Below, piece by piece: positions 17,001 through 34,922 of a stretch of 59,984 nt of DNA; position 1 is the first letter of the stretch, and each line of letters opens with the position of its first letter. Source of the stretch: Bacteroidota bacterium (GTDB taxonomy: Bacteria; Bacteroidota; Bacteroidia; Bacteroidales; UBA12077); contig JAYEKP010000098.1 in assembly GCA_034661075.1 (NCBI GenBank), positions 1 to 59,984 of the forward strand. The letters run 5' to 3'. Position numbers and translations under genes: made by a program. The notes under the pieces are model-generated. The model was not told the origin of the DNA, did not search any database, and saw only the letters and a list, made by a program, of their open reading frames with translations.

Positions 17001-17373
17001 TGGTTATGATGCCAACATCTAAAGTGTCGGGAACAAGCGAAATATATTCATATAAACCTAAGCTATTTTTTTCTAATACACCATAATTATTATTTGTTCC
17101 GACATAAACTTTATGGTTATATGGATTTTTCTTAACCACAAAGGGGATATAAGGTAGTTTGATGGTATTCCATTCATGCCCGTCGAACGTTAAAATTCCA
17201 CGGCGGTTAGCAAAAAGCATTATATTCTCATAATCCTGGCTTATACTCCAGTTTTGTGTTTCAAACTCCTTAGCTTCATTAAAGTGAGTAATAAAAGGAG
17301 TCCCCTCCTGAGCAAAAGTTTCGCAGACAATAAAAATAAATAGTAAAAAATAGATTCTTGTAATAAAATACAT
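14001..17373 (-). pseudogene. Disrupted sensor beta-propeller / Y_Y_Y / SpoIIE (PP2C) phosphatase
   Basis: Four ORF-track pieces join into one gene: +1 frameshift in the T9 run at 16067-16075, in-frame TGA at 15807-15809, in-frame TAA at 15156-15158. C-terminal PRDIVSGDFY, DCTGHGVPGA, SDGYADQFGG and DDI motifs. Confidence 0.88.
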
Positions 17374-17476
17374 CGTTTATCTATTTATAAAATCGTAGAT
17401 AAGTTACAAAAAAATGAGGAAAAAAGCTTGAAAAAACACAAGCTGTTGCAATTATTTGAAATTTTATCCCGTCTGT

Positions 17477-17842
17477 TTTAGCTGACGGTTTTTGAAAAAA
17501 ATCATTGGGTTAGCAGATACATAGGGGTGAAGACGAAGTAAAAACTAAAAACTAAAAAGCTTATTGGATTTACATACATAATTTTAAAAAATACTGTAGT
17601 TGATAAATATGGTAATGGTATCCGTCCAGCCGTTTCAATCGGCCAGACGGATTGGTAACAACAGTACAGCAGACATTCCTGTCTGCTGAAAAAATGAAAC
17701 AGTCTTGTCTGCCGAAAGAATACGACAACCCAGCGCACAAGAATGTGCGCTGTACTGTACTTTTTGGTAAACCGAAGGGTTAATCCCTCGGTTATAAACA
17801 ATACCTCCTATAAAAAAAATGCCACTGTTGAAAAGTTTTGGT
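17477..17842. repeat. Composite REP-like hairpin cassette, copy A
   Basis: Hairpins at 17620-17652, 17667-17688, 17731-17752 and 17770-17793; homologous to 27650-28128. Confidence 0.85.
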
Positions 17843-18063
17843 TGAATATACACTCAATCGGTATTATGTATTTGATCTTTTAACGCTGATGTTTATCAAT
17901 ACTTTTGCTGCATTTATCAAAAAAAAGAAAACCCTTTTTATTTACGTACGTTAAATAAATTTAGGTAAAAGGGGAAAGAGTATTTGTAAAAAAACAAACA
18001 AAATAGATTAAATTTAACCGATTGTTTTGGATTGCTGGCAGTTGCTATTTAAAAAAATTTTAT

Positions 18064-18071
18064 TACTTTTG
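18064..18071 (+). promoter_or_regulatory. Candidate -7 promoter box of the giant surface-protein gene
   Basis: TACTTTTG about 65 nt upstream of the ATG. Confidence 0.45.
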
Positions 18072-18134
18072 GTTTTTAAATTACATTGGGAAATTTTTGA
18101 TTCAATTAGCTAATTATTAACCTTATAATATTAG

Positions 18135-21100
18135 ATGTTTAAAAATTATTATCATATGATTAAATTAAGGAGATTTTTATTTTTAGTATTATTCATTGGA
18201 ATTTCCTTAAATACTTTTGCTCAGACTGTAATTTTATCTGAAGATTTTAATGGAAGTTTCCCTGCAGGATGGTCCAATATTGTCATTGATGGTCCTCCAA
18301 GATTCCCGGGCTGGGAATGGACTGATGTTGGTGGAAATCATGGAGGACAGCTCAATTCTACTACATCAGCCAACGGTTATATGATCTTGGATTCTGATCA
18401 GTATGGTATAGTGGGAGTAGGAGTAAACGAGGATGCTGAATTAATATCACCTTCATTTGACTGTAGCGATAAGGATATTATTAATTTTTCTGTTGAGCAT
18501 TGGGCCCGTTCTTATGGTAACGCTAATATTACAATATCTGTTAGCTCAGATAATTTTACAACAGAGGATATAATTTATAATTGGAGTGGTGGAATCGATG
18601 AAACTAATGGGGCGAATCCTGTTGTCTCAAATTTTGATATTTCAGCTTATGCAGCAAGAGAAAGTAATGTGAAAATAAAATTTAAATGGCAGGGTTCCTG
18701 GGATTATTGGTGGTTAGTTGATGATGTTCAGATTACCGGCCTAGAAGCACCCATTGGTAATACAACCGATTTGGTTTACTGGCTCCGCGGCGATTTAGGT
18801 GTAACTGGTGCTACCCCAATAACAAATTGGGCAGACCAATCATTAAATGGCAACGATGCGACGCCTGGTGGTACAGGACCCGACCAGATTGTTTCCCCTG
18901 ATATGAATAACCAGGAAGTAATGTCTTTCGATGGTAATCGTGAATTAAATATTGCCGATGATCCCAGGATAAATACAGGAACCGGGTACGATGGAACAGA
19001 AAGGACTATGTTTGTTGCATTTCAAACAGGAGCAGATGTAACTTCTACCCAATATATTTATGAACAGGGAGAAAATGTAAATGGAATTGGTGTTTATATA
19101 AAGAATGGAAATTTATATGTTACGGCTTATAATAATGACGCCGCAGATCGAGTTACGGTCTATGAATCTGTTAGTACCAACACTCCATATATTTTGTCGT
19201 TTAACTGGAATAACGGGGCGCTTTCTGCAAAATTAAATAATGTCAACTTTACTAATCAGTCTTCGACAGGAAATATAAATTCTATTAATAGTCACTTAGG
19301 GGATATATCCATAGGTTTTACTGATGGTACTACAAGAGATGAGACAGGAACAAGTGTTGGTGGAGGATTAAACTTTTCAGGAAAGATCGCAGAATTAATT
19401 TATTATGATGCAGCACTAACCGAAGTGGACGAAGTAGAAATTAATAATTACTTAGGCGACAGGTATGGGGTAGATGTTAGTGTAGACTACGACTACGATA
19501 TTTACTATTCCTATCAAACAGGCGACTGGGATGATCCCGATACCTGGACCTTTGATCTGGGAGGTACTACATTAACACCCACTGATATTCCGAATAAGAA
19601 CGATAAAGTAGTAATTTTAAATGACAGAACCGTTACCCTGACTACTGATGTAGATACTGCCGGGTTGGATATTACGGTGAAAGAAGGAGCTGTCCTGGAT
19701 TTAGCAAGCTACACCTTTACTAATGGTATAGCTACCCTTCAGGGGCAAGGTACTTTTAAGCTCGCTTCGGTTAATTATCCGTCTGTAACATCCAATTTGT
19801 TTGTGCTTGCCGGAGGAGGAACCACCGAATATTACAATGCTGCTAATTTTACTTTACCTCCTGCGCAAACCGAATACAACCATTTGCGGATTAATACCCC
19901 CGGCCCCGGCTTTACCGCAACCCAATTAAATAATATTACGCTTAATGGCGATTTACATGTGAAACAGGGCACATACCAAATTAATGATAACTCAGCAGCC
20001 TGCCGACAATTAACCATTCATGGGGATGTATTGGTGGATAATGGCGCAAGTATTACTACTGGTACTGGAAATACAGTTAGTGGTATCGAAGATGGAGGAA
20101 CAGCACCGTTCACAAATTACTACGACTTAAACTCACACAGGGTAGTTGTTTATGGTGATTTTACCAACAACGGAACCGTCCGGTTTACCAATCAAAGTTA
20201 TCCGGTATACAATGCCTTCCCAACTGATGGTATGGCAACGGTGTATTTTATGGGAGCAACTAACAATACCCTACACTGTAATGGTACCACCGATTTCTAC
20301 AACCTGGTGTTGGATAAAGGGATTGACCAGACCTATAAACTGTCCTTATATTCAACGGCTTACCAGAATTTCAGGCTTTTTGGACGGAACGATATTGGAG
20401 GTGAAAATGGCGGAGCAAATCCTGATTTACGAAAAGCTTTGTGGATTCGTACCGGTACATTGGAGCTTAAAGGAATGACCATTATTCCTTCATTAACTGA
20501 AGCCAACACAGGAGGATCACCCAATGGAGATTTTTACGTACCTGCTAATGCAGCTCTTCACATCAGTGGCAGCGAGGTAATTGTTTTATCTACAGCTGAC
20601 GATTATCGCGAAGTTAATCTGGCTTATGGGGTATCTGCAACATCCAACGATCAAATTGGAGTTCGTACATCAGGTGGTACACAGTCATTCTCTATATATG
20701 GAAAATTGCAGATTGATAATGGGGTTTTCTCCACTAGAGAATCAGGCGGTATTATCACCTGGGATGTTTCGTCAGGGGTATTAGTTATTAACGGCGGTAT
20801 TGTGGATGTAAAACAATACCGTTCGGCAGGAACCTCAGGTGGATTAGCTTCTTATACTCAAAGTGGTGGTACATTCCTTTTACGTGGCCGCTTTCAGCGT
20901 ACCCCGACCGCTTATTCATCTATTGCCAACCTAAAGGATTTTTCTACCGCAACGTTAAATACTACAAGAGAAACAGGAGGATTACAAGGTAATCTGGGAA
21001 CGTTTAACATTAATGAAGCCCCTAACGTATTCAGTATGTCTGGAGGAACCATACGTATTTATGATGTTTGTGGTACCGGAGAGAGTGAAGCCTTTCAGGT

Positions 21101-24100
21101 CTTTTCCGACGAAAACAATAATAGTGTAACCGGAGGAACCCTTGAAATTGTACCTACAGCAGGTACCACCGGTACAGATGCTACAGAATTTAGGATAGAA
21201 ACGACTGCAGACCTTTATAATCTTTCTATAAACCGCGCAAGCAGTACTGCTTCTGTAGATGTGAATCTGTATGATTTAACGGTAATTAATGACTTAACCA
21301 TTACTTCCGGAGAATTCGTGGCTAATGATTATGATATAACCATTGGTGGTGATTTTATCGTGGAAAACGGAACCACTTATACTCCTGGAAATAACTGGAC
21401 CATATTTAATGGAACGGGAACACAAAGTTTTGAAATAAATACAGGATCAGCCTTGGATTTGTATAAGTTTATGCTCGATAAACCTTCTGGTTATGTTTTA
21501 ACCATAGCCGGAACACAAAATGTACTGAATGTGGTCGACTCGCTGATGATTCAAAAGGGAACGCTGGCGGATGGCGGAAAAACCATTTATATGAACGGTA
21601 GTTTGTTGTATAATTCAGGAGTGCATGAAGGTACCGGTAAAATTGTGATGAATGCAACGAGCCCACAAATCATTACAGGAGATGGTAACGGCGTTTTTGA
21701 AAATATTGAGTTGAATAATACCGATGGCAGTGCAGCACCTGTTTCTTTAGGAGCAAATACAACCATCAATGGTACACTTACTTTTTCGCAGGATAATTTA
21801 TTTGACATTTCTACCTACAGATTAACCTTTGGAGCAGATGCAACGGTAGTAAATGCCGGAACCAATCGATTTATTCAAACGGCCGGAAATGCCGGAGATG
21901 GAGGAGTTAGTAAGGTTTATTCCACTTCATCAACAAGTTTTACCTTTCCAGTGGGAGCTCCTTCTACTAGTCATGCGGCTGCTGCCGAATATTCCCCGGC
22001 TACTTTATCGTTTAGTACTAATCCAACAACATTTGGAACAATAACAGTGGTGCCGGTAGGATACGAACATCCCAATACAACTAATAAAAACAGAAGCTTA
22101 ACTTATTTCTGGCGAACCAAATCCGAAGGGTTTACATTAGGTTCAGCTGTTATAAATCATGCATATACTTATTCTGATAACGATGTTATTGATAATGGAA
22201 CAACTATTACAGAAGATGAATATGTTGCAGCCATGTATGATAATGCATCCTATACATGGACTAAGTATAATGTAACAGATGTGGAGGATGGTACGAATAC
22301 AATAGGAGGAACAGGAACATCTTTGGCATCACTTAATTACATTGATGGTGAATTTACTGCTGGTGATGATACACCGATCGCTGATGATCCTTTTGGAACA
22401 CCGGTAGTTTATTATAGTGTTGCAGATGGTTTCTGGGGTGATGCATCAACTTGGTCGAATACAAGTGGAGGAACACCTGGTGCAGGTGTACCCGGGCAAA
22501 ATGATGTTGTAATTATAGAAAACAATCATACTGTTGAATTAGAACATAATGGGGCTGATTATCCAATGAATTATGATGTTAGAAGTTGTGCAACATTGAA
22601 AATTGAGGAAGGTTCAGTGTTAGATATTAAAAGTAATACTGCCAGTACGTTTAGTACAGTTTTAAGTCATCCTAATGGTAATGGGTTATTTAGAGTTACC
22701 ACTGAAAAAGCTCCTGATAATTCAGAACCACAATTTTTTACTTTTCCTTCTGGAGATTTTTCAGATTTTAATTTGAATGGTGGAACAACCGAATACTATG
22801 ATATAGATGGAACAGTTGGAGCTCTTTATATTTTGCCACCCAATGTTACGCAATATGGAAACCTTATTCTTACTGCCAGAGGAGGCGCTAATTTGGTATT
22901 GCCAAATAATTCATATACGACAATAAATGGCGATTTTACATGTACTGGAAATCAAACTATAGCATGGATCGCTATGTCGTGGAATACAACTGTCGGGCCT
23001 TATTATACCGATGATTATGATCCTACACTGGAAAAAACAGTTCACATTAAGGGGGATATGTTAGTTGATGCAGGAAGCTTTGAGTTTTTTAATGATGAAG
23101 CAGTCCAACATTTAATCGTGGAAGGAGATCTTACTATTGCTGAAGGCGCTGTTTTGGAGACATATGGGGATTATCCATTTGCTACGCCTGTAGTTACCAA
23201 TACTATTAAAATTGGAGGGTCATTAACTAATAATGGTACTTTTAGATTAAGACGAAATGCCGAAGGAAGAACATATATAGTTAATGCAACTTTTTATGGG
23301 GGAAATACTTCAAGAATAACGAATACAGCCGGTACACCTACAACCATTTTTAATGATGTTACTGTTAATAAAGGTACATCACAAGCCGATTCCTTAATTG
23401 TTGATATTGAAGGGACCTTATCAACCCCAACAGATGCTTGGCTAACCCTTGAAAATGGAACATTTTATTACGAACATGACGGCGATTTAAGAATTACTGA
23501 AGACAGCCAATTTACCATTCCTGCAACAGCTGCTCTTTCAATCAACTCTCCGGGTAATACAGTATATCTGGCCAACGATAATGTAAATGATAACGATGTT
23601 TACCTAAACGGAAAACTAACCATTATTGACGGAGATGTTTTTATAGGTCAACCGGGTGCCCCAAGCAATAATAATGATATTGAGTATTCGGGTGGTGGAA
23701 ATTCTACCATTGATATTCAGGGCGGTAGTTTGACTGTGAATGGACAAATTAGGAGAAATCCATCTACATCAACAGGTATTTTAAAATATAATCAATCAGG
23801 TGGAGCTGTTACCATTAATGGGCGTAACACCATTACTGAAAATGCAAAACTCGAAATCTTAAATAATGGAAGTGAATTCAATATGTCCGGGGGTACACTC
23901 ACTATTGTGCGTGGAGGTGGAGGTGGAGGTGGAGGTGGAGGAGGAACCTTTGGTGATTTATACCTTCGTCCGGATAACTCAACCGTAACTGGAGGAGAGA
24001 TAATATTTAACCCCGGCGCTGCGGGTGCTCAAAATTTTATTTTTGATGCCGATATCCCCATTTGGGATTTAACAGTCAATACTGATGCAAATGTCGAATT

Positions 24101-27100
24101 ATTAGTGAGTCCGCTAACTATTAAAAACGACCTTACTATTGCAAGCGGAGGAACCCTGGATGCCAATATTAATTTTGATATACCGATAACCATTGAGGGT
24201 AATTTTGACAATTCAGGAATCTATGAGCATCGAAATAACTTAACTACATTTAGTGGAGGTACTCAACAGATTTTGGGAAGTGCTGCAATTGAATTCTATG
24301 ATTTAAAGGTTGATCCTGTAACAAGTTTGACCTTAGATCGTGATGCAAATGTTCAGAATAATTTGATGATTAGCAGGGGAACATTGGTTTGTGATGTGAA
24401 TTCAGTTTATGTTCAAGGTAATGTAACTAATAATTCAACTTATAGTGACAATAACGCAGGATTGATACTAAATGGTACTAAAAAACAGCAATTAATTTCT
24501 GGGACAGGTACTTTTGGCCGCTTGGAATTGAATAATTCACAAGGTGCCAGAATAGAAAATAATCTTTCTTTGCAAGATGATTTGATATTAACTAAAGGAA
24601 TTTTGGACATCAATAATAAACTTTTAACCTTAGGCCCTTCAAGCAACATCTTGGGTGCCCCTTTTGATGAAACTAAAATGATTATTTCCGATGGAGTATT
24701 TAGTGATATAGGTTTACGTAAGTACTTTAATATATATTCAGGTGCAAATCAGACTTTTACTTTCCCAATAGGTACTTCAGGGAAATATACTCCGGCAATT
24801 TTAACATATTCAGATATTGCCAATGTAGGTTATATTCGTATTAATAATATTAATGATAATCATCCTGGTGTTTTTGATGAATCAAATGTACTTGATTATT
24901 ATTGGGAGGTTGAAAGTGATGGAATAACAGGGTTTAATGGAAGTCTCTTATTTAACTATCTCGAAGAAGATATTGAGGTTACTGGCTCAAATACCGAAGC
25001 TGATTATATAGCTGCAGCATTATTACTACCAGGTACAAGTTGGTCAAAAGCTGCACCGGGTGCTGGTACCGATAGGGTTGATGAAAACAATAATACAATT
25101 ACTTTTAATTTTGCCGGAACAAATTCTTTGTCAGGCGAATTTACCGCTGGTATTGATAATGCATTACCCGATAATGTACCTGAGTTTACCAGTATTAATG
25201 ATGGCGATTGGTCTGATTCCGATAATTGGGTTCAAACAGGAGGGGATACATTTGAATTAACAGGAGCTCCCAACGGTTTTATTATAGTTATTGATTCTGA
25301 TGATGAAGTTTCTACAGATATTAATTACGCATCTGCTTATAGAATAACTATTAATGGAGAACTTAAAGTAAATAAGCCTACTTATGGACACAATCTTGGT
25401 ACGGTTTCAGGAACGGGAACCTTATATCTTGAAAGCGGAATGTTCCCTGCTGGCCGTTATACCGATTTTCTGGATTGTGCAAACAACGCTACCCTCAAAT
25501 ATGGAGGAACTGGAACCTATAATTTAATAGCGGATCTGTATTCTTCTGTTCCAAACTTACATTTTACAGGAACAGGGACAAGAATTTTACCTAATAAAGA
25601 CCTTACTATCTGCAACCAATTATTAATCGATGGGCCTACATTGGATAATAGTGCAAATAATAGAAAGTTAATTATTCAGGGAACCATGGAACGTTATAAT
25701 ACCGGCGCATTTAACAGTGGTACCGGAGCAAACGCTACGGTAAGTTTCGTAGGTTCTGCTGCTCAAACCATAGGTGGTACTCTGGGCGATTTTACAGGAA
25801 CCAATGCATTTAATAACCTGGAAATTAATAATAGTGCCGGCTTAACCGTAAATTCAGGAGGTGCCATTGAGGTGGGCGGTAATTTGTTATTAACCAACGG
25901 GAATATTGTTACTTCCTCAACCAATACATTTACCATTACAAATGATGCTATAAATTGTGTATTTCCTGCCGGAGGAAGTTTTTCTTCATACGTAGACGGG
26001 CCTTTAACCAAGTATATCCGACAGGGAGATGATTTTAAATTCCCCATTGGTAAAGGCGATACATTAGGCAATAAACTTACATTATCATCCATTCGTCTGG
26101 GTACCATTGCCTGGACAGCCGAATTTTTTACACCAAACCCAACCTATACTGATTTTGCAAGTCCGTTAACTTACGTAAATTCTAAGGAATATTGGACCAT
26201 AACAGCAAATGATGGAGATGAGGCTAAGGTGGGATTGGATTGGGATCCACAAAGTGATTTAACCCCGCTGATGACACAGAATGGTTTGAGTGATATGCGT
26301 GTTGTAGGTTTTAACACGGGAACAACACAATGGGAAGAAATATCCTCTACTCAAAGTGGAGATTATAATAATGGTACCGTAACTACATCAACTGAAATTA
26401 TTATTCCTGCGAGTGGATCAAGTGATTTTACAACCGCTTGTGTAAATGTTACCAAACCACGGGCAAGATTAAATCCTTCAGGAGCTGTTTGTGGCGACGA
26501 AGGCATTCCTGTTGCATTTACCGGTGTGGATGCAAGTGATTTGGATTATGTGTTAACTTATGAAAAAGGGGGTGTTTTACAGCCTTCTGTTACTATTACT
26601 TCAGCTGATTTGCCTTATATCTTGCCAACAGATGCCATTGGTACTACTTATGAGTTAATTAGTTTTACCTATAATGAGCCCGTTAGTCCTAAATCAGGGG
26701 TTGTTGATCCGGCAATAATTACAACATATACGGTTCCAACTACTGCTGATGCAGGCAATGATCAGTCGATTTGTGGGGGAACTTCAGCGGTTATGGATGG
26801 AAATACACCGGGTGTTGGTACAGGCCAGTGGAGTGTGGTAAGTGGTACCGGAGGATCATTTGTAGATCCAACCAACCCTACCACAACGTTTAACGGAACC
26901 AATGGTACGACTTATACCTTGCGATGGACGATTACCAATGGAGACTGTTTTTCTACAGATGATGTTGTAATAGCATTTCCATTGTTTCCCGAACAACCTG
27001 ATGATTTTACCACGAGTTCGGCAATTGTTTGCCAGGGAGATGAAGATGTAGAATATACCGTTCCTAATGATCCTTCGGTTACATATACCTGGGGTTATGA

Positions 27101-27599
27101 TGTTGGTACTGGAGCTACAATTGTTGGATCAGGAAATAGCGTTACGGTTGATTTTGCAAACAATGCTACAAGTGGAACATTATATGTATTTGCAACCAAT
27201 GGTTGTGGTGATAGCGATCGAAGAGAAATTGATGTAACTGTAAATGAGATGCCACAATTAACCATTACAGTTGACCCCCTTGTAGATACAATATGCGATG
27301 GAGAAACAACGCGTTTAGAAATTGACTTTACAGCTGGTTCAGGCACCTATGATTTTACAATTACTGATGGAACAAATAGTGAAGATTTATCTGGTATTAC
27401 CGATGATCCATATACTTATGAAAAGGCACTGAATTGGGTAGATGATGGGACTCCCGATACTGATTATAATTTTATCATTACAACTATTACCGATAGTAAT
27501 GGTTGTAGCAATACCAACCTGGGGAGCGAAGCTGTAAAAGTTTTTAAAATCCCGGGTTCTGGAGATGTTTACCATATTTCCAACGATTGGAATAATTAA
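18135..27599 (+). CDS. Giant secreted adhesin-like protein (3154 aa)
   Basis: Sec signal ending TFA-Q. N-terminal MAM/cleaved-adhesin-like jelly-roll (WQGSWDYWWLVDDV), LamG-like lectin domain (LVYWLRGD..WADQS..IAELIYY), three G8/beta-helix-like modules, C-terminal Ig/PKD-like repeats. No type A or B CTD. Domain names are by-eye inference. Confidence 0.85.
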   Translation: MFKNYYHMIKLRRFLFLVLFIGISLNTFAQTVILSEDFNGSFPAGWSNIVIDGPPRFPGWEWTDVGGNHGGQLNSTTSANGYMILDSDQYGIVGVGVNEDAELISPSFDCSDKDIINFSVEHWARSYGNANITISVSSDNFTTEDIIYNWSGGIDETNGANPVVSNFDISAYAARESNVKIKFKWQGSWDYWWLVDDVQITGLEAPIGNTTDLVYWLRGDLGVTGATPITNWADQSLNGNDATPGGTGPDQIVSPDMNNQEVMSFDGNRELNIADDPRINTGTGYDGTERTMFVAFQTGADVTSTQYIYEQGENVNGIGVYIKNGNLYVTAYNNDAADRVTVYESVSTNTPYILSFNWNNGALSAKLNNVNFTNQSSTGNINSINSHLGDISIGFTDGTTRDETGTSVGGGLNFSGKIAELIYYDAALTEVDEVEINNYLGDRYGVDVSVDYDYDIYYSYQTGDWDDPDTWTFDLGGTTLTPTDIPNKNDKVVILNDRTVTLTTDVDTAGLDITVKEGAVLDLASYTFTNGIATLQGQGTFKLASVNYPSVTSNLFVLAGGGTTEYYNAANFTLPPAQTEYNHLRINTPGPGFTATQLNNITLNGDLHVKQGTYQINDNSAACRQLTIHGDVLVDNGASITTGTGNTVSGIEDGGTAPFTNYYDLNSHRVVVYGDFTNNGTVRFTNQSYPVYNAFPTDGMATVYFMGATNNTLHCNGTTDFYNLVLDKGIDQTYKLSLYSTAYQNFRLFGRNDIGGENGGANPDLRKALWIRTGTLELKGMTIIPSLTEANTGGSPNGDFYVPANAALHISGSEVIVLSTADDYREVNLAYGVSATSNDQIGVRTSGGTQSFSIYGKLQIDNGVFSTRESGGIITWDVSSGVLVINGGIVDVKQYRSAGTSGGLASYTQSGGTFLLRGRFQRTPTAYSSIANLKDFSTATLNTTRETGGLQGNLGTFNINEAPNVFSMSGGTIRIYDVCGTGESEAFQVFSDENNNSVTGGTLEIVPTAGTTGTDATEFRIETTADLYNLSINRASSTASVDVNLYDLTVINDLTITSGEFVANDYDITIGGDFIVENGTTYTPGNNWTIFNGTGTQSFEINTGSALDLYKFMLDKPSGYVLTIAGTQNVLNVVDSLMIQKGTLADGGKTIYMNGSLLYNSGVHEGTGKIVMNATSPQIITGDGNGVFENIELNNTDGSAAPVSLGANTTINGTLTFSQDNLFDISTYRLTFGADATVVNAGTNRFIQTAGNAGDGGVSKVYSTSSTSFTFPVGAPSTSHAAAAEYSPATLSFSTNPTTFGTITVVPVGYEHPNTTNKNRSLTYFWRTKSEGFTLGSAVINHAYTYSDNDVIDNGTTITEDEYVAAMYDNASYTWTKYNVTDVEDGTNTIGGTGTSLASLNYIDGEFTAGDDTPIADDPFGTPVVYYSVADGFWGDASTWSNTSGGTPGAGVPGQNDVVIIENNHTVELEHNGADYPMNYDVRSCATLKIEEGSVLDIKSNTASTFSTVLSHPNGNGLFRVTTEKAPDNSEPQFFTFPSGDFSDFNLNGGTTEYYDIDGTVGALYILPPNVTQYGNLILTARGGANLVLPNNSYTTINGDFTCTGNQTIAWIAMSWNTTVGPYYTDDYDPTLEKTVHIKGDMLVDAGSFEFFNDEAVQHLIVEGDLTIAEGAVLETYGDYPFATPVVTNTIKIGGSLTNNGTFRLRRNAEGRTYIVNATFYGGNTSRITNTAGTPTTIFNDVTVNKGTSQADSLIVDIEGTLSTPTDAWLTLENGTFYYEHDGDLRITEDSQFTIPATAALSINSPGNTVYLANDNVNDNDVYLNGKLTIIDGDVFIGQPGAPSNNNDIEYSGGGNSTIDIQGGSLTVNGQIRRNPSTSTGILKYNQSGGAVTINGRNTITENAKLEILNNGSEFNMSGGTLTIVRGGGGGGGGGGGTFGDLYLRPDNSTVTGGEIIFNPGAAGAQNFIFDADIPIWDLTVNTDANVELLVSPLTIKNDLTIASGGTLDANINFDIPITIEGNFDNSGIYEHRNNLTTFSGGTQQILGSAAIEFYDLKVDPVTSLTLDRDANVQNNLMISRGTLVCDVNSVYVQGNVTNNSTYSDNNAGLILNGTKKQQLISGTGTFGRLELNNSQGARIENNLSLQDDLILTKGILDINNKLLTLGPSSNILGAPFDETKMIISDGVFSDIGLRKYFNIYSGANQTFTFPIGTSGKYTPAILTYSDIANVGYIRINNINDNHPGVFDESNVLDYYWEVESDGITGFNGSLLFNYLEEDIEVTGSNTEADYIAAALLLPGTSWSKAAPGAGTDRVDENNNTITFNFAGTNSLSGEFTAGIDNALPDNVPEFTSINDGDWSDSDNWVQTGGDTFELTGAPNGFIIVIDSDDEVSTDINYASAYRITINGELKVNKPTYGHNLGTVSGTGTLYLESGMFPAGRYTDFLDCANNATLKYGGTGTYNLIADLYSSVPNLHFTGTGTRILPNKDLTICNQLLIDGPTLDNSANNRKLIIQGTMERYNTGAFNSGTGANATVSFVGSAAQTIGGTLGDFTGTNAFNNLEINNSAGLTVNSGGAIEVGGNLLLTNGNIVTSSTNTFTITNDAINCVFPAGGSFSSYVDGPLTKYIRQGDDFKFPIGKGDTLGNKLTLSSIRLGTIAWTAEFFTPNPTYTDFASPLTYVNSKEYWTITANDGDEAKVGLDWDPQSDLTPLMTQNGLSDMRVVGFNTGTTQWEEISSTQSGDYNNGTVTTSTEIIIPASGSSDFTTACVNVTKPRARLNPSGAVCGDEGIPVAFTGVDASDLDYVLTYEKGGVLQPSVTITSADLPYILPTDAIGTTYELISFTYNEPVSPKSGVVDPAIITTYTVPTTADAGNDQSICGGTSAVMDGNTPGVGTGQWSVVSGTGGSFVDPTNPTTTFNGTNGTTYTLRWTITNGDCFSTDDVVIAFPLFPEQPDDFTTSSAIVCQGDEDVEYTVPNDPSVTYTWGYDVGTGATIVGSGNSVTVDFANNATSGTLYVFATNGCGDSDRREIDVTVNEMPQLTITVDPLVDTICDGETTRLEIDFTAGSGTYDFTITDGTNSEDLSGITDDPYTYEKALNWVDDGTPDTDYNFIITTITDSNGCSNTNLGSEAVKVFKIPGSGDVYHISNDWNN
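23913..23945 (+). repeat. (GGAGGT)n microsatellite encoding Gly11
   Basis: Four GGAGGT units plus GGA x3, in frame. Confidence 0.95.
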
Positions 27600-27649
27600 A
27601 AATATTTTTAGCAGGATAAATCTGCTAATCATAAAACGTTCTTTGAAAA

Positions 27650-28190
27650 GTACAGAAGACTTTTTTAACTACCTGTGGCAGTCCTGTCTGTTGAAAAAAT
27701 AAACAGCTTTAGCCGGTTTTTTTGGAAAAACTCATTGGGCTGGCAGAGAGACAAGGGTAAAAAAAGTGAGTAAATGCCGGAGACTGATGAATAAAATGAA
27801 AAAAAAATCCGGATTTATTAACAAACCTGGTTTTAAAAAAAATGCTACTGTTTAAAAAAAAAATTTTGGTAAGTCACGGTGTGAATTCCTGAATAAGGGT
27901 AGTTCATAGTTTTTTATAACTATAACTTGCAAAAGGCTCATTGTATCCGTCAAGCCGTTCTAATCGGCTAGACGGATTGTTAAAAGTACAGCAGACATTC
28001 TTGTCTGCTGAAAGAGTGAAGCATTTTTGTCTACTGTAATATACTCAGCGCACAGGACTGCCTAAACGGCAGTTAAAAATGTGCGCTGTACAGGCAGGGA
28101 TAAAAACACACGGGTTAACTCGTGTGTTATATTTGCGCCCCGTCCTGATCCCGATAGTTATCGGGATTATCGGGAGTTATCGGGATGGCG
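27650..28190. repeat. Composite REP-like hairpin cassette, copy B, with an extra partial unit and a palindrome array
   Basis: Hairpins at 27945-27977, 27989-28010, 28046-28088 and 28105-28128; partial unit at 27650-27693; atcccgatagttatcgggat with ttatcggga x3 at 28148-28186. Confidence 0.85.
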
Positions 28191-28566
28191 AGAAACAAAA
28201 AATGAGGGTATTGCCAGAAAATAAGAACGAGTTATCAAAAAAAAATACTATATTCGTCTATAGTAACTGTTTGTTAACGGAATATTTTTGGCATTTATCC
28301 TTTAAAATAATACATTTACACGTTTTTTTAATGGATTAATCAAAGGAAGGTTAAATAAAGAAACAAGATGTTTATAAAATCGTTAAATATATTTAGAAAA
28401 TTAACAAACTGTAAAATATTAAAAAATAATGCCTATGATGAAACATTAAAAATTAAATAAGTCCATAAAACAATGACTTAAATTACTATAATATATAAAT
28501 ATAATAACACATAAAAATTATTGAAAATTAAACATTTAATTAAATACAAACTTAAATTTTGAGATT

Positions 28567-29514
28567 ATGAAAAAAACAAACTTTTTTAAAATGGTAATGA
28601 CGCTTGTTATGGCGTTTATGGTTACAGGAGCTTTTGCTCAGGTGTACGAAGATGGTAATTACACTGAGAATCAGTTAGAAGATATTTACCAGACAGCTGG
28701 TTCTGATTTTGGTCTTTATGTCATACCAGATGCAAATTATAGTCCAGAATATACTACCAATGGAACAATTGGTGCAGGTGTAGAATGGACATGGACATTT
28801 GATGCTGGTCTTGGAACAGCATCAGTTACAAGTGGAACTGCTCAAAGTTCAAATTATGTGGAATTTACGAATCCTACAACTACTGGCTCACCTTATACTG
28901 TAGATGTTGAGGAATCAAACACAGCTGTTGCTTGTACTGGTGGTGGTATAAGTCAAAAAATAAATGTTATAGATGCTCCTTCAGCTCAAATTACAACATC
29001 TGATCCAGCTACAGCTTGTGGTAACCAAGCTGCTAATTCTGTAACAATTGAATTTACAGAAGATGTACCTTCTGCTCTTGCAGGTTATGCATTTGCTGTG
29101 ACAGAAACTGTTGATAATTTATCGGATCTAGGTGGTAGCCCTACCGTTAATAATGTATCAAGTACTGTAGATTTTGTTGACTATCCAACAACTAATAAAC
29201 TGAATACAATGAATGATTTGACAGGTGCAGCATCTCCTTATTCTTATTCTTTTAATACATCTGCTCTTGATTTGCAAAATAATAAGATTACTAGGTATAC
29301 TTACACTATTGTAAAAGCAACTGATGCACCAGTTGCTGCTGATGATGGTCTAATCTCTGCAATAAGTCAGAAATCAGAATATATTAGTAATGTTATTAAT
29401 GGTAATGTCTTAACTACATATTCTTTTGGAGCAAAAACAACTTATGTTGCGATTGTCGTTCCGACTCCTGAAACAGGACCAATTTATCATATACCTAATA
29501 ATTTTGCGTATTAA
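28567..29514 (+). CDS. Secreted two-Ig-domain-like protein; candidate major filament subunit
   Basis: Signal peptide ending AFA-Q; T/S/A/V-rich beta composition; ends PETGPIYHIPNNFAY, matching the giant protein's C-terminus. CDS is secure, role is inferred. Confidence 0.75.
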   Translation: MKKTNFFKMVMTLVMAFMVTGAFAQVYEDGNYTENQLEDIYQTAGSDFGLYVIPDANYSPEYTTNGTIGAGVEWTWTFDAGLGTASVTSGTAQSSNYVEFTNPTTTGSPYTVDVEESNTAVACTGGGISQKINVIDAPSAQITTSDPATACGNQAANSVTIEFTEDVPSALAGYAFAVTETVDNLSDLGGSPTVNNVSSTVDFVDYPTTNKLNTMNDLTGAASPYSYSFNTSALDLQNNKITRYTYTIVKATDAPVAADDGLISAISQKSEYISNVINGNVLTTYSFGAKTTYVAIVVPTPETGPIYHIPNNFAY

Positions 29515-29558
29515 TTAGTGATAGAATTATAAGTGAACACAAAATAACTCAAAAAATT

Positions 29559-29597
29559 GAACTGGTTTAGGAGCTTACTCTCCTAAGCTAGTTCTTT
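29559..29597 (+). terminator. Strong hairpin after the 315-aa gene (terminator / mRNA stabiliser)
   Basis: 15-bp stem gaactggtttaggag/ctcctaagctagttc with two G-U pairs and a short TTT tail. Confidence 0.7.
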
Positions 29598-29610
29598 AAA
29601 AAAAGCATAC

Positions 29611-29997
29611 ATGCAAAAAAATATTAAATATTGGATTGAATTGTCTGATTATGACATGGAAACGGCAGAAGCTATGCTCAATAGCAAAAGATTTCTGTAT
29701 GTGGGCTTTCTGTGCCACCAGACAATAGAAAAGATATTTAAAGCATATTATACGCATGTAAAATAAGAAACAGCGCCATTCTCTCATAGTTTATCCTACC
29801 TGGCAAAAAAGGGAGATTTTTACGATCTTTTTACCGAAAGCCAGAAGGATTTTATCGATCAGATTGAACCATTGAATATCGAAGCAAGGTATCCATCGCA
29901 TAATGAAAGGTTAATGCAAAGCCTTACCGAACAAAAATGCATGGAAATAATTAAGCATACAAAAGAGATTCAATCGTGGATAAAAACGAGGTTATAG
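29611..29997 (+). pseudogene. HEPN domain gene with an internal stop (missed by the ORF track)
   Basis: MQKNIKYWIELSDYDMETAEAML..YVGFLCHQTIEKIFKA..VK*ETAPFSHSL..NIEARYP..WIKTRL; TAA at 29764-29766. Confidence 0.88.
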
Positions 29998-30278
29998 AAA
30001 AAGTTAAAGCTTATAAAGCATTATTGAAAAATCATTTCAATATGCACTCGGTATATCTTTTTGGTTCGTATGCTAAAGATAACCACACAGAAGATAGTGA
30101 TATTGATGTGGCGGTTATTGTTGATCAGGTCGATGGCGATTTTTTTGCGATTAATCCTTTACTGTGGAAATTGAGAAGGCAAATTGATGATCGAATTGAA
30201 CCGATCATTATTGAAAAAAAATACGATGATGCAAATTTCCTGGATGAAGTTATTCGGACAGGCATTGAAATAAAATAA
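29976..30278 (+). CDS. Minimal nucleotidyltransferase (MNT), HEPN-MNT antitoxin
   Basis: YLFGSYAK..EDSDIDVAV motif; overlaps the HEPN 3' end; GTG start. Confidence 0.92.
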   Translation: MDKNEVIEKVKAYKALLKNHFNMHSVYLFGSYAKDNHTEDSDIDVAVIVDQVDGDFFAINPLLWKLRRQIDDRIEPIIIEKKYDDANFLDEVIRTGIEIK

Positions 30279-30303
30279 AAAGCATAACAATAAATTTAAT
30301 CCT

Positions 30304-31314
30304 TTGAAAAAATATCATAACAGATTATCATTTTTAGTTATTCTAATGTTAGGATTAGGATTAAAAGGTTATACTCAATCTGATTTGCCGGTAGCCTGTG
30401 GTGGCGAAACAGTTCGCTGCGGTGTGGTAGGCGATAACGGCAATTCTGTGTTTTTCTGGGAAGTTACAGGAGGCACCATTATTAATAATTATAACGATTC
30501 AGTGGATATTCAATGGACATCGGTTGATGGGATGAGAACCATTACAGTTACTGAAACCAACTTGTATGGTTGCGAAGGCGAGCCATATTCTCAGCAACTG
30601 CTGGTTTCGTCGCCTTTTGTTGACTTAGGTGGGGATGGAGAAGTTTGTGCGGGTGAAACGTATGAATTTTTTGCTTCGGCAGATGATGTTTCCTCTTACC
30701 TGTGGCAGGACGGAAGCTCCGGAGAAACTTTTATTACCTCCGAAGAGGGCGATTACTGGGTACGTGTTGTCGATGAGTATGGATGTGTATCATCCGATAC
30801 CGCAGGTTTAATTGTTCATCCGTTACCGGATGTTGATTTAGGGCATGACACCACACTTACTGCCGACGATCAGCAAATTACCTTTGATGTGAGTGAGTAT
30901 GGTACGTTCTACGATTGGTTTGATGGTAGCAATGCTTCAACCTATACGGCATATACTCAATTAGAAACCCAGGAAATTTGGGTTAAAGTAACCAGTGAAT
31001 ATGGTTGTGTGGGTGCAGATACCGTGTATGTTGAATTTGGTGAATTTACAATCCCAACTGCTTTTACACCTAACAACGACGGGCATAACGATGTTTGGAA
31101 AATTGATTTCTTATTTTGCTTTCCAGATGTTACTGTTGATGTTTATAATCGTTGGGGCGAACGGGTATTCCATTCTAAAGGATATTCATCCGATAAACAT
31201 TGGGATGGTACCGATGAAAAGGGTAAGAAATTACCTATGGATGCCTATTATTACGTAATTGACTTGCATAATGGAGAAACACCAAAAGTGGGTCATATAA
31301 CCATTATTCGTTAA
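30304..31314 (+). CDS. Small secreted Ig/PKD-like protein with T9SS type B (gliding-motility-associated) C-terminal domain
   Basis: IPTAFTPNNDGHNDVW..VYNRWGERVF..WDG..YYYVI..GHITIIR; Y.WQDGS Ig repeats; signal peptide; TTG start. Confidence 0.92.
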   Translation: MKKYHNRLSFLVILMLGLGLKGYTQSDLPVACGGETVRCGVVGDNGNSVFFWEVTGGTIINNYNDSVDIQWTSVDGMRTITVTETNLYGCEGEPYSQQLLVSSPFVDLGGDGEVCAGETYEFFASADDVSSYLWQDGSSGETFITSEEGDYWVRVVDEYGCVSSDTAGLIVHPLPDVDLGHDTTLTADDQQITFDVSEYGTFYDWFDGSNASTYTAYTQLETQEIWVKVTSEYGCVGADTVYVEFGEFTIPTAFTPNNDGHNDVWKIDFLFCFPDVTVDVYNRWGERVFHSKGYSSDKHWDGTDEKGKKLPMDAYYYVIDLHNGETPKVGHITIIR

Positions 31315-31350
31315 ATGTTTGTAACTTAGTAGGAAAGAATTTTTATAAGC

Positions 31351-32331
31351 ATGATGAAAAAAATAGTAATATTATCCATTGTTGTTTTGCTGAATACACT
31401 CGCTGTATTTGGACAACACGATTTCTCCTACAGTCAGTATATGAACAATAAATTCCTGGTTAACCCTGCCTTTGCAGGCAGTGAAGGATTTACCTCTTTT
31501 GATTTTTCTGCCCGGCAACAGTGGTTGGGATTCGAAAATGCGCCCAGTACACAGTCCATCAGCGGGCAAACACGAATATTAAAAACAAGCTATGTTGCCA
31601 AAGCCCGATCGGTTAGAAAAAGAATACGTAAAAGACGACCCAGTGGAAGAGTTGGGTTAGGTGCTTATGTATACAATGATCAAAATGGACCCATTGGCAA
31701 AACAGGAGCTGAATTAACCTATGCCTATCACATTTTTATTAATAATGGACAATTGTCGTTAGGTTTATCGCTTTCGGCTTATCAATTTAGGGTAAATACC
31801 AAAGATCTTACCACTGCTGATGATTTTGATCCACTAGTAAGTCAGGCAAGGGAGAGTATGTTTATTCCCGATGGTAGTTTTGGTATTTTTTATTCTTATC
31901 AACCTTTTTATGTGGGTGTTTCGGCGAAAAATTTATTTCAGGCTGCCCTTAAATTTGGGCAGGATAATAGTTTTGCCGATTACCAACAAATCCGGAATTA
32001 TTATTTTATGACCGGTTATCGATACGATATGGAAAATGATTTTGAGATTGAACCTTCCATATTACTTAAAACCACAGAAGTCTTTAATTTACAGGCTGAT
32101 ATATCCTTACTAGGTTATTATAAAAGAGACTACTGGCTTGGATTCTCTTATCGTACCGGAAATGCTTTTGTTACCATGATTGGTATTCGGGTAGATAAGA
32201 TTAACATTGGCTACGCTTTCGATTATTCGTTAAATGATATTCAACGAATAAGCTACGGCTCTCACGAAATTGTCCTTGGATTAAAGTTTGGTGATAATGC
32301 AAGACGTTACCGTTGGCTAAATCGTTTCTAA
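31351..32331 (+). CDS. T9SS membrane protein, PorP/SprF family
   Basis: YSQYM.N..LVNPAFAG, RQQWLGF..AP, TYAYHI, GFSYR, GYAFDY and GSHEI motifs; adjacent to the type B CTD gene. Confidence 0.93.
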   Translation: MMKKIVILSIVVLLNTLAVFGQHDFSYSQYMNNKFLVNPAFAGSEGFTSFDFSARQQWLGFENAPSTQSISGQTRILKTSYVAKARSVRKRIRKRRPSGRVGLGAYVYNDQNGPIGKTGAELTYAYHIFINNGQLSLGLSLSAYQFRVNTKDLTTADDFDPLVSQARESMFIPDGSFGIFYSYQPFYVGVSAKNLFQAALKFGQDNSFADYQQIRNYYFMTGYRYDMENDFEIEPSILLKTTEVFNLQADISLLGYYKRDYWLGFSYRTGNAFVTMIGIRVDKINIGYAFDYSLNDIQRISYGSHEIVLGLKFGDNARRYRWLNRF

Positions 32332-32342
32332 AGAATTTTGAA

Positions 32343-32579
32343 GGATCACCGCCATCCCTGGCGGTATTTTATAAATACATGATAGAACAGTTCAATTGGG
32401 TCTCTGTTCGTTTTTCATTCCATAATCGTTTTGATTTAGTTTTAATATTATGCATGAACCGGCTGGAAGCCGGCGATCTTTTTTGTAATACCGGCTGGAA
32501 GCCGGCGATCCATTTTAGCTGCCTGAAACCGGCATTCCAGCTGGATCACCGGCTCCCGAAAGTTTTCGAAACTGCCGGT
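32343..32579. repeat. REP cluster left of RAYT
   Basis: gatcaccgccatccctggcggt at 32344; accggctggaagccggcgatc at 32458 and 32490; variants at 32528-32579. Confidence 0.9.
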
Positions 32580-32647
32580 ATTAACTATTATTAATTCTAC
32601 ACCTGAATTTACATAATTTGGAAAAAAATAGTAGTTTTATACTAAAA

Positions 32648-33258
32648 ATGTCCAAACATCAAGTTCCAGAAGAATATAGAAGAAAGTTGCCTCACATACA
32701 GCCAAAAGATGCTGTTTATTTTGTTACCTTTAATCTTAAAGGAGCATTACCTTTACATATTTTAGAGCTATTAAGAGATAATTTTAAGGAGGGAATACAT
32801 AATTTACATCACAACCATAAAATAAAAAAAGAGGCTTTTGAGAATTATTACAATCAAATTAACGATATTTTAGATGATGGAGAATTTGGACCTCATTGGT
32901 TGCAAAATCATCACGTAGCTCAAATTGTAGCTGATAGTTTCCATTATTTAGACCATAAAGTATTTAAGTTAATATGCTTTTGTATAGTAATCATGTACAT
33001 TTTATTGTATATAAATTAGATAAACCATTACATAATATCATGCACTCATTAAAATCATATACAGCTAATCAATGTAATGATGCATTAAAAAGACAAGGTA
33101 GATTCTGGCAGCGTGAATATTTTGATCGTATTGTGAGAGACAGAAATGATTTGACAAAAAAAATTGAATATACGATAAATAATCCAGTAAAAGCTGGTAT
33201 TGTAAATTATTGGAAAGAATACTTTTTTACCTATTGTTGTTCTGAATTTATTGAATAA
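32648..33258 (+). mobile_element. REP-associated tyrosine transposase (RAYT, HUH/Y1), frameshifted
   Basis: RRKLPH..YFVTF; NHVH HUH motif; SLKSYTA, FWQREYFDR and Y..NNPVKAG motifs; frameshift near 32986 just before the HUH. Confidence 0.9.
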
Positions 33259-33287
33259 TAAACAATAAATAAATAGTGGTTACTTTT

Positions 33288-33497
33288 ACCGGCTTCCGAA
33301 AACTTTCGGGACTGCCAGAGATCCTTTTGGATCACCGCCATCTTAGGCGGTATTTTCGATAATATAGACAGAACCATTATTTTTAATCTCTTGTCGTTTT
33401 ACATTTAATAAATGTTTTGAAATAGATTCTTATATTCCACAACTACCGGCTGGAAGCCGGTGATCCTTCTTGTAATACCGGCTGGAAGCCGGCGATC
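33288..33497. repeat. REP cluster right of RAYT
   Basis: Variant at 33288-33323; gatcaccgccatcttaggcggt at 33330; accggctggaagccggygatc at 33445 and 33477. Confidence 0.9.
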
Positions 33498-33581
33498 TAT
33501 TAAATAAATCATCCAATTTATTAAACATTATAAAGCTAAAATGCGTATTTTAGTAAACATAATCTTTAAAAGTAAATCATT

Positions 33582-34922
33582 ATGAAGAAACTGTTTATAG
33601 CAATAATTATAGTAGCCTTACTTATTTCTGCATTTTTTATCATTAAGCCCATTATCGTAAAAAATAATTACCAGCAAGGGCTTACTTATAGCGATTCATT
33701 AAACTATAAAAAAGCGCTAGAACATTTCAATACATCTATTCAATGGGATAAAAAAAATATACCTGCCTTAATAGCCCGGGCCAATGTTTTTTACCAGTTA
33801 GAAAATAAAGAAGCTGCGATTAATGATTATAATAAAGTACTGGCATTGGATTCCATAAATTTTAGTGCCTGGTTTGGACGCGGGCTGGTATATCTGAAAA
33901 ATGAAGATTACCAAAATGCTTTACAGGATTTTAAAAAAGCCGAATCGGTGGATACAACAACCGACCTGTTTTATTTTTTAGGTTATACAAAATCAAATCT
34001 TAAGAATTTCCAGGAAGCATTAAAGGATTTAAACCAGGTAATCGAAAAGGATTCTTTATATGCTGAAGCATACCACCAGCGAGGAATAGTATGGGCTAAT
34101 TTAGATAACCTGGAAGCCTCGGTACAAGATTTTAATAAAGCACTAGAATTAGATAAAGATAACCTGGATGCTTATCAGCGTAGAGTAAAATACAGAGTTG
34201 GTAAAAAAGATTATAGCGGTGCCATTGCCGATTATGATGCCATTATTGAGTTAGATCAAAATAACCAGGATGCTTACTATCAACGAGGTTATTTTAAATT
34301 GCAGATTCAGGATTATCACGGAGCTTTAGCCGATTTTAACCGGGCTATTGAAATTAACCCAAAGGATGCCCGGTCGTATCAGAAAAGGGGGAATGCGAAA
34401 GCCGGATTGGGAGATTATCAGGATGCATTAATTGATTTTAACCAGGCTATTGCATTAGATAAAACCAATGTCGAAAGCTATCATCGCAAGGGCCTGGTGT
34501 ATTTGCATTTGTCTGATCCTGATAAAGCAATACATGCTTTTACTCAGGCCGTGAATTTAAAAACGGATTATGCTGATGCTTATTATTTAAGGGGAGTGGC
34601 TAAAGCCATGCAGCAAAAATATGAAGCATCCATCACAGATTTTGATCGGGCGATTCAATACAACAAAAATCATGCTCAGGCTTATTTAGGACGTGCGGTT
34701 TCTTTAGGAATCCTGAAAAAGCACGAAGAGGCCATTGCCGATTATGATCAATATATTAAAATGGAGCCTGATGACGGAACGGCATACTTAAATCGGGGAA
34801 AATCTAAAATTAACCTGAATAATTATACTGATGGCTGTAATGACTTTCAAAAAGCGTTGGAGCTTGGGGTAGAAGAAGCTCAGGAGATGTTAAATATGTA
34901 TTGTAAATCGAATTCCAAATAG
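33582..34922 (+). CDS. Tetratricopeptide repeat protein with N-terminal anchor
   Basis: Repeated 34-aa AY..RG.....DY..A..DF..AI units. Confidence 0.93.
   Translation: MKKLFIAIIIVALLISAFFIIKPIIVKNNYQQGLTYSDSLNYKKALEHFNTSIQWDKKNIPALIARANVFYQLENKEAAINDYNKVLALDSINFSAWFGRGLVYLKNEDYQNALQDFKKAESVDTTTDLFYFLGYTKSNLKNFQEALKDLNQVIEKDSLYAEAYHQRGIVWANLDNLEASVQDFNKALELDKDNLDAYQRRVKYRVGKKDYSGAIADYDAIIELDQNNQDAYYQRGYFKLQIQDYHGALADFNRAIEINPKDARSYQKRGNAKAGLGDYQDALIDFNQAIALDKTNVESYHRKGLVYLHLSDPDKAIHAFTQAVNLKTDYADAYYLRGVAKAMQQKYEASITDFDRAIQYNKNHAQAYLGRAVSLGILKKHEEAIADYDQYIKMEPDDGTAYLNRGKSKINLNNYTDGCNDFQKALELGVEEAQEMLNMYCKSNSK

Follow-up and report, generated by a model that had tools for sequence, protein, structure and literature searches.

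The stretch analysed here (the window) comprises 59,984 nucleotides of contig JAYEKP010000098.1 from the Bacteroidales genome GCA_034661075.1, and the system in question is a group of four genes encoding a giant protein of 3154 residues, a small protein of 315 residues, a 336-residue protein and a 326-residue outer-membrane protein of the PorP/SprF family (Table 1). A preliminary description, made from the letters alone, had recognised four co-oriented genes for secreted proteins, and all four open reading frames (ORFs) were confirmed on the forward strand. It had likewise placed the only signal for secretion by the type IX system (T9SS), a C-terminal domain (CTD) of type B, on the 336-residue protein, hereafter the CTD-B protein, next to the PorP/SprF gene. 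Searches with Pfam and NCBIfam bear this out: residues 249-336 match CHU_C (PF13585; E = 3.7e-24) and TIGR04131 (E = 3.3e-18), which are found in this protein only among the four, and the 326-residue protein matches PorP_SprF (PF11751; E = 6.5e-74) and TIGR03519 (E = 1.8e-78). The giant and the small protein exhibit no match to PF13585, PF18962, TIGR04131 or any other NCBIfam family at E ≤ 0.01 and are thus devoid of a type A or type B CTD, so that, as T9SS cargo, they could be exported in trans only. All four N-termini, as read from the sequences, resemble substrates of signal peptidase I (SPI), with Gln at +1 and without the Cys of a lipobox; the cleavage sites of the giant, small and CTD-B proteins (cut at the slash) are NTFA/QT, GAFA/QV and KGYT/QS, none of which contains Cys, and Q25 is conserved in the small-protein and CTD-B families. 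The proposal that these are not lipoproteins, unlike the subunits of type V (Mfa/Fim) pili, hence stands. The database copy of the giant begins at M8 and counts 3147 residues.

Table 1. Features of the locus, with positions numbered along the window (aa, amino acids; AF2, AlphaFold2; Ig, immunoglobulin).
Feature	Position	Strand	Length or basis
Giant secreted beta-helix/Ig-repeat protein without CTD, putative distal adhesin or cargo	18135..27599	+	3154 aa
Last three Ig/PKD-like domains of the giant	26607..27545	+	AF2 model, PKD_6/Ig_7
Giant-class C-terminal tail KIPGSGDVYHISNDWNN	27546..27596	+	atypical variant of the class consensus
Small secreted protein	28567..29514	+	315 aa, AF2 model
N-terminal Ig/PKD-like domain of the small protein, inferred candidate acceptor of a second tail	28639..28974	+	hhalign
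Small-class C-terminal tail VPTPETGPIYHIPNNFAY	29458..29511	+	conservation, interface in complex model
CTD-B anchor/adaptor protein, three Ig-like domains and type B T9SS CTD	30304..31314	+	336 aa, TTG start
First Ig/PKD-like domain of the CTD-B protein (residues 25-103), predicted tail acceptor	30376..30612	+	complex model
Type B T9SS C-terminal domain (CHU_C/TIGR04131)	31048..31311	+	Pfam, NCBIfam
PorP/SprF-family outer-membrane protein, putative cognate carrier that would anchor the type B CTD	31351..32331	+	326 aa, Pfam, NCBIfam
Terminator-like hairpin with T-run downstream of porP, where the transcription unit likely ends	32348..32365	+	consensus match only

The two CTD-less proteins, to which Sec signals and a common C-terminal motif had been ascribed at the outset, end in KIPGSGDVYHISNDWNN (giant) and PTPETGPIYHIPNNFAY (small), with the common motif PxxGxxYHIxN. 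Among the 9251 stop-to-stop frames of at least 60 residues in the genome that harbours the window (3.03 Mb, 98% complete), exactly two, the giant and the small protein, end in P..G..YHI.N, and a 26-position tail profile retrieves the same two only (E = 1.4e-12 and 3.3e-9; next match E = 0.17). The sharing of the motif by the two proteins exceeds chance, and within the genome it is specific to this pair. Comparison of 166 distinct small tails and 101 distinct giant tails yields the shared core P-x-T-G-P-x-Y-H-I-P-N, with exactly four residues following the Asn in 157 of the former and 80 of the latter; all of 107 small proteins share P301, T303, G304, P305 and N311, and the residues around them vary little. 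The two classes differ systematically. The small-class consensus is IVNP[AT]PxTGP[IV]Y[HY][IV]PN+4 and the giant-class consensus V[YFW][KR]xP[ED]TGPxYH[IV][PS]N+4 (+4 denoting the four final residues): position +1 after TGP is I/V in all 166 small tails and Q/A/E/S in 84 of the 101 giant tails, position -2 is V, T or A in the former and E/D in 87 of the latter, and position -5 is P in the former and K/R in 95 of the latter. These differences argue for different acceptor sites, and two tail classes would fit a chain from giant to small protein to anchor at least as well as they would fit a polymer. The last Ig-like domain before giant tails varies in kind, so that the tail has the character of a portable peptide that is simply appended. 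In locus L060 (8963-9589), the second small paralogue, of 208 residues, carries a giant-class PETG tail.

For a survey of the genomic context, 80 loci were fetched with the small-protein profile from species-representative genomes, the small gene being present in all of them by construction; nearly all are from Bacteroidales metagenome-assembled genomes (MAGs), and one is from the cultured Perlabentimonas gracilis. A CTD-B homologue lies directly downstream of the small gene in 75 of the 75 loci with room for it (median gap 90 bp), and a PorP/SprF gene comes next in 69 of 70 loci with room. The linkage of motif-bearing genes to CTD-B/PorP pairs, postulated previously from the single locus, is thus a property of a conserved module. 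A homologue of the giant lies directly upstream on the same strand in 24 of the 54 loci with at least 3 kb of upstream sequence; it is found elsewhere in the locus in 5 and not within the locus in 25. Other neighbours (a ~290-residue protein, a tetratricopeptide-repeat (TPR) protein, RecF-like proteins and histidine kinases) are each found in no more than 25 of the 80 loci and in varying orientation, and were rejected as parts of the module in favour of flanking synteny; no enzyme gene is conserved in the module in this survey. Two tandem PorP/SprF genes, or a second small tail-bearing paralogue beside the first, are observed across L017, L018, L021, L053, L066, L060, G698, G199 and G273. Four module contigs are labelled as MAGs of Thiohalospira (L023), Melioribacteraceae (L029), Acidobacteriota (L058) and Trichloromonas (L060); they are probably mis-binned, since the range of the module is otherwise confined to Bacteroidales. 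In several loci of long-read MAGs (L037, L041, L052, L069 and L071), many short frames stand in place of intact giant, small and CTD-B genes; these could be frameshift-rich assemblies or pseudogenes.

Of 301 genomes sampled from the order, 33 match the tail profile, each with one to six tail frames; a sample of 400 other genomes from across the phylum gave no match. A typical tail-positive genome holds one frame of ~300 residues and one to three of 2500-6000 residues, some of them unlinked, and a frame of the small size is present in 32 of the 33. The tail also occurs on other large proteins that are unlinked or were not detected as homologues of the giant: five genomes scored as lacking a giant contain other tail frames of 3272 and 524 residues, of 3032 residues, of 1920 (adjacent) and 2437 residues, of 354 residues (a second small paralogue) and of 2277 residues, respectively. 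One to several different tail-bearing giants per genome fits exchangeable tips or cargo. A profile of the CTD-B N-terminal region matches as many as 229 of the 301 genomes, because domains 2 and 3 of the CTD-B protein are common adhesin repeats; informative are only full-length matches in frames of 310-420 residues, and such an adaptor-like match is present in 29 of the 33 tail-positive genomes among the matches listed.

The complex of the mature CTD-B protein (residues 25-336; 70-row alignment) with the mature small protein (residues 25-315; 107 rows) was modelled, and the interface score ipSAE (interaction prediction score from aligned errors) was 0.61, 0.49 and 0.61, the best of three controls reaching 0.00. 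Among 80 solved complexes 58 attain this score mark, as do 2 among 110 mismatched pairs; these counts are only approximate here because custom alignments were used. The runs share at least 82% of the contacts, and the partner has a predicted local distance difference test (pLDDT) score of at least 84. In the model, the small protein contributes its tail (298-312) along with residues 149, 151-152 and 188, and the CTD-B protein contributes residues 26, 28-29, 36-44, 48, 50, 66, 80, 82-86, 88-95 and 97 of its first Ig-like domain. The register of the pairs 41:306, 40:307, 39:308 and 38:309 (CTD-B:small) corresponds to an antiparallel strand added to strand 36-44, I306 of the tail being ringed by CTD-B residues 40-42, 80, 82, 95 and 97, and the invariant tail residues P301, T303, G304, P305 and N311 lie in the modelled interface. 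Outside the CTD, no part of the CTD-B protein is as conserved as the predicted acceptor surface, with a mean entropy of 1.48 at interface positions and 2.08 in the rest of the first domain; the conservation of the acceptor positions is equalled by only 24 of 10000 random position sets. The modelling thus supports binding of the small protein to the CTD-B protein, and the earlier proposal of a CTD-B base that receives a C-terminal strand is backed in silico.

The small protein itself consists of a signal peptide (1-24), an Ig/PKD-like domain (25-136), an Ig/Calx-beta-like domain (137-297) and the tail (298-315), and AF2 predicts the two domains as Ig-like beta-sandwiches (mean pLDDT 91.9). Its family comprises 485 representative clusters at E ≤ 1e-3 and 344 at E ≤ 1e-10, and the strict tail pattern ends 127 of the best 150 representatives; a word-indexed search gave 132 matches, none with a Pfam domain and with the shown names reading 'hypothetical protein'. 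Searches with Foldseek against the Protein Data Bank (PDB) and with exhaustive VIA-align retrieved generic Ig/Calx-beta folds, with no pilin listed (best Z-score 7.7; r.m.s.d. 3.2; 108 aligned residues). Ig/PKD-like domains had been attributed to the giant, small and CTD-B proteins alike, which holds for part of the comparisons. Pfam finds PKD_6/Ig_7 at residues 2959-3037 of the giant, and residues 72-190 of the small protein align with 2982-3087 of the giant (BLASTP E = 0.003). The N-terminal domain of the small protein is related to the first domain of the CTD-B protein with an hhalign probability of 86% (E = 5e-6), over an aligned span that includes the signal peptides; plain BLASTP of the CTD-B protein against the giant and against the small protein gave nothing significant. 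Y51, V114, E116 and C123 of the small protein correspond to Y39, V82, E84 and C90, conserved in the CTD-B family, and the N-terminal domain of the small protein is itself strongly conserved, so the domain that would receive a second tail resembles the one modelled as acceptor. Three proteins of 1595-2143 residues (P0353, P0365 and P0379) carry 9-15 tandem PKD-like repeats related to this domain, and the V-x-E...GC signature is present in P0365 only.

The giants provide a further line of evidence. Among 2617 scored candidates, 630 homologues were found at E ≤ 1e-10, and 73 of the best 120 end in the strict tail pattern, most others having variant tails or being fragments. Tail-bearing giants (P0174 and P0178) are also present in Williamwhitmania taraxaci and Tenuifilaceae bacterium CYCD, which, like P. 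gracilis, are in culture. Seven of these 120 possess a type A CTD (PF18962, Por_Secre_tail) according to the precomputed Pfam column, and two more end in a CTD-like manner, one of them being named a T9SS type A sorting-domain protein in its source. The clearest case is L21SP5_01731 of Salinivirga cyanobacteriivorans (P0135), which shares 65.5% identity with the giant over residues 14-3076 and then continues for ~610 extra residues ending in a type A CTD, where the giant of the window has half an Ig domain and the tail. The cis type A CTD in orthologues of the giant constitutes comparative evidence that the tail may replace a CTD. In one Salinivirgaceae MAG with a cis-CTD giant (completeness unknown), no small-protein homologue was found at E ≤ 1e-3. 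The last 330 residues of the giant were modelled by AF2 (23-row alignment; mean pLDDT 80.7) as three all-beta Ig-like domains, the last strand comprising residues 301-313 of the fragment; along the tail, pLDDT declines to 75 and then 52, with the final three residues below 50. At the other end, the lectin-like character first ascribed to the giant did not find support in Pfam (no match in residues 1-460) nor in a PDB sequence search with the head (chance-level matches, E > 0.5); a language-model atlas points to LamG-like jelly-rolls (score 0.90, 160 shared features), which is a lead only, and an alignment of N-termini indicates that the 450-residue head is absent from most giants. Residues 1927-1937 of the giant (23913-23945) form a run of 11 Gly encoded by (GGAGGT)4GGAGGAGGA, and the partial homologue P0183, which ends just past this run, has only 4 Gly in the same motif, pointing to an in-frame expandable repeat.

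The genome encodes SprA (SprA_N, E = 4.7e-175, in a 2444-residue frame), 6 PorP/SprF genes including that of the locus, 9 CHU_C proteins scoring over the Pfam cut-off and 26 type A CTDs over the cut-off; SprA and the type A CTDs show that it has a working T9SS gene set. Three other PorP genes of the genome adjoin genes for proteins of 1200-1660 residues with their own CHU_C. This is the usual, fused layout, with the type B CTD on the large adhesin itself and the PorP/SprF gene coming after the adhesin gene; at the present locus the CTD resides instead on the separate 336-residue protein, while the giant and the small protein carry, in place of a CTD, the PxTGPxYHIPN tail with four further residues.

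Based on this evidence, we suggest, as an interpretation that we place just on the probable side, that the locus encodes a split, modular T9SS surface adhesin whose CTD for secretion and anchoring is contributed in trans, by docking of the tails. The small protein would insert its tail into the first Ig-like domain of the CTD-B protein in the periplasm, as an extra beta-strand beside strand 36-44; the CTD-B protein would engage its PorP/SprF carrier at the SprA translocon; and the tail-bearing proteins would be co-exported with it across the outer membrane and stay on the surface in trans through the CTD-B protein. The order that we favour runs from the giant via the small protein and the CTD-B protein to PorP. 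With C-terminal tails docked on N-terminal domains, the assembly would run in the same direction as a single long polypeptide that ends in a CTD. Such a chain is favoured by the class-specific tails, by the almost constant presence of the small protein and by its acceptor-like N-terminal domain; in it, the step from the small protein to the CTD-B protein is the modelled one and the distal position of the giant is conjectural.

Several observations weigh against this interpretation. The complex is a model from custom alignments and not a measurement, and when AF2 models the small protein by itself, the tail (299-315), non-regular as it is, still has a pLDDT of 81-93, so that it may pack on its own domain. 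The giant tail of the window is atypical, GSGD replacing ETGP. At least 8 genomes without a tail match at E ≤ 1e-4 possess a full-length adaptor-like match among the matches listed. The V-x-E...GC signature recurs in the tandem PKD-like repeats of one large protein, so that an acceptor site on the small protein is permitted rather than proven. The gap between the small and CTD-B genes is 790 bp here, compared with the median of 90 bp in related loci, being widened by a HEPN/MNT insertion, and RNA data covering 27000-32400 were sought and none was found. Finally, no T9SS-carried non-covalent complex was found in print.

Among the alternatives, a T9SS-anchored pilus comes first: a filament anchored by PorP and held together by non-covalent insertion of C-terminal tails into Ig-like domains, with the CTD-B protein as base, the 315-residue protein as shaft or connector that polymerises head to tail via its tail into the next N-terminal domain, and exchangeable giants as tips. 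The modelled docking of the tail as a strand on an Ig-like domain would suit such a filament, as would the homology of the small N-terminal domain to the acceptor with the same Y, V-x-E and C positions, the small tail-bearing ORF in 32 of 33 tail-positive genomes, and the tandem small paralogues of some genomes, reminiscent of major and minor pilins. A uniform shaft, however, needs a single type of acceptor site, whereas the differences between small and giant tails at +1, -2 and -5 suggest distinct ones; moreover, with the export signal on the base subunit only, a long non-covalent polymer would have to cross SprA. Divergent tail classes and a single export signal thus argue mildly against a long shaft, and we consider the filament unlikely, while noting that, if real, it would represent a pilus type distinct from type I, type IV, type V and sortase pili, and would be the first instance in which the signal for T9SS export is given in trans.

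Rather improbable, in our view, is an arrangement of independent cargoes, in which giant and small tails compete for a single site on the CTD-B protein and the small protein is another surface protein, a cap or a placeholder. The modelling supports one acceptor site only, and several different tail-bearing proteins coexist in a genome. Yet the class-specific tail differences are kept across the order, and in each of the 75 loci with room the small gene directly adjoins the CTD-B gene while giants are often unlinked; competition for one site explains neither the class-specific tails nor the constant small gene. The N-terminal domain of the small protein, moreover, is strongly conserved.

The tail might also be a signal for processing or sorting, through sortase-like cleavage at PxTG or through attachment to a surface polymer by transpeptidation of the PorU type: its P-[ED]-T-G core resembles LPXTG, and its fixed distance to the C-terminus could be suited to an exopeptidase or transpeptidase. 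This we regard as very improbable: the 98%-complete genome gave no match to the sortase family PF04203, to which 3 control genomes responded; the T-G of the motif is followed by only 9-10 mostly polar residues and by no hydrophobic anchor; the module lacks a conserved enzyme gene; and the model puts the whole tail in a protein-protein interface. A merely coincidental neighbourhood, with the giant and the small protein residing in the periplasm or having nothing else to do with the CTD-B/PorP pair beside them, is scarcely credible given synteny across divergent genomes, giant orthologues with a cis type A CTD and the complex model.

The split adhesin may be compared with several known systems. 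A PorP-like protein is reported to bind and anchor its type B CTD (CHU_C/TIGR04131; PMC9143113, PMC12618676), type B CTD proteins exit the translocon on PorP-like carriers (PMC10994853), and they remain bound to them on the cell surface (PMC9143113). As in the SprB/SprF system of Flavobacterium johnsoniae, a very large repetitive surface protein is encoded beside a PorP/SprF gene; here, in contrast, the CTD is on a separate 336-residue protein, the giant has a tail of ~15 residues only, and an extra tail-bearing protein of 315 residues is always present. The pairing of a small type B CTD protein with PorP recalls PG1035-PorP(-PorE) of Porphyromonas gingivalis; PG1035, of unknown function, is described in PMC9143113 as surface-exposed and PorP-bound with its CTD uncleaved, and no tail-bearing partners are described for it, whereas the present module has such partners and is without a PorE-like gene. 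The cis-CTD giants exemplified by P0135 belong, by their identity, to the same adhesin family as the giant of the window, from which they differ by ending in the PF18962-containing extension and not in the last half Ig domain and tail.

Type V (FimA/Mfa1) pili are surface fibres of Bacteroidales in which the proteins of base, shaft and tip are linked through the exchange of C-terminal strands. Their subunits are lipoproteins matured by proteolysis; the proteins at the present locus appear to differ in their SPI signals with Gln at +1, in the absence of a pilin among the generic Ig matches and in their presumed dependence on CTD and PorP. Closer in one respect are PilC1 and PilC2 of the type IV pili of Kingella kingae, whose conserved C-terminal tails attach large adhesins to the fibre-tip complex by beta-strand augmentation, as reported in PMC13711793. 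The modelled tail would likewise join a large adhesin through beta-strand augmentation, but PilC1/PilC2 depend on type IV machinery, are unrelated in sequence and have no role there in passage across the outer membrane. Subunits of chaperone-usher pili and of archaeal threads or cannulae are reported to donate a terminal peptide by which the Ig-like sheet of the following subunit is completed or extended; compared with these donor-strand systems the donor is C-terminal here, and neither chaperone nor usher was found by Pfam on the four genes and flanking ORFs or among the conserved neighbours. Sortase pili and LPXTG proteins, lastly, differ by their sortase and by the hydrophobic segment and charged tail after the motif, neither of which was found here.

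T9SS, type B CTD and PorP machinery are known, and it is the tail-mediated supply of a CTD in trans, possibly building a fibre, that would be new. No paper containing YHIPN, GPIYHI or TGPIYH was found in a literature search of full texts, and within the same range CTDs that act in trans and comparable T9SS cargo devoid of a CTD were not encountered either. Fused forms are likewise wanting: no small-protein relative of 553-2000 residues was detected at E ≤ 1e-5, which is weak evidence, and the representative search gave no fusion of a small protein to a CTD. At present a protein counts as T9SS cargo by virtue of a C-terminal domain in cis, and the prediction of secretomes rests on that definition. 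If a tail of ~15 residues recruits proteins to a CTD adaptor, present predictors miss giant T9SS cargo in about one tenth of the sampled Bacteroidales genomes. Supply in trans would offer a testable answer to how CTD-less giant adhesins arrive at the surface, would imply that the translocon moves non-covalent assemblies, and would explain how one anchor serves several exchangeable adhesins. It might also provide a compact pair of peptide and domain for surface display.

The insertion between the small and CTD-B genes, which the preliminary description had missed, is a HEPN/MNT (nucleotidyltransferase) toxin-antitoxin-like pair at 29611-30278; its HEPN frame is interrupted by an in-frame TAA at codon 52, PF05168 matching both halves. 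Rfam found no RNA family in 17300-33600, and promoter-like sites are not enriched over shuffled sequence (61 versus 66.5). The intergenic regions upstream of the giant and small genes (17660-17834 and 27815-28039) have direct repeats in common, in swapped order, one of 58 nucleotides at 83% identity with the hairpin CAGCAGACA..TGTCTGCTG and one of 43 nucleotides at 77%; these could be shared regulatory elements or elements of the repetitive extragenic palindromic (REP) kind. Just downstream of porP, an ORF of 133 residues without a Pfam match is flanked by a repeat of ~175 nucleotides, 70-84% identical, at 32343-32514 and 33329-33501, which is rich in GC hairpins (ACCGCCATC...GGCGGT; CCGGCTGGAAGCCGG twice).

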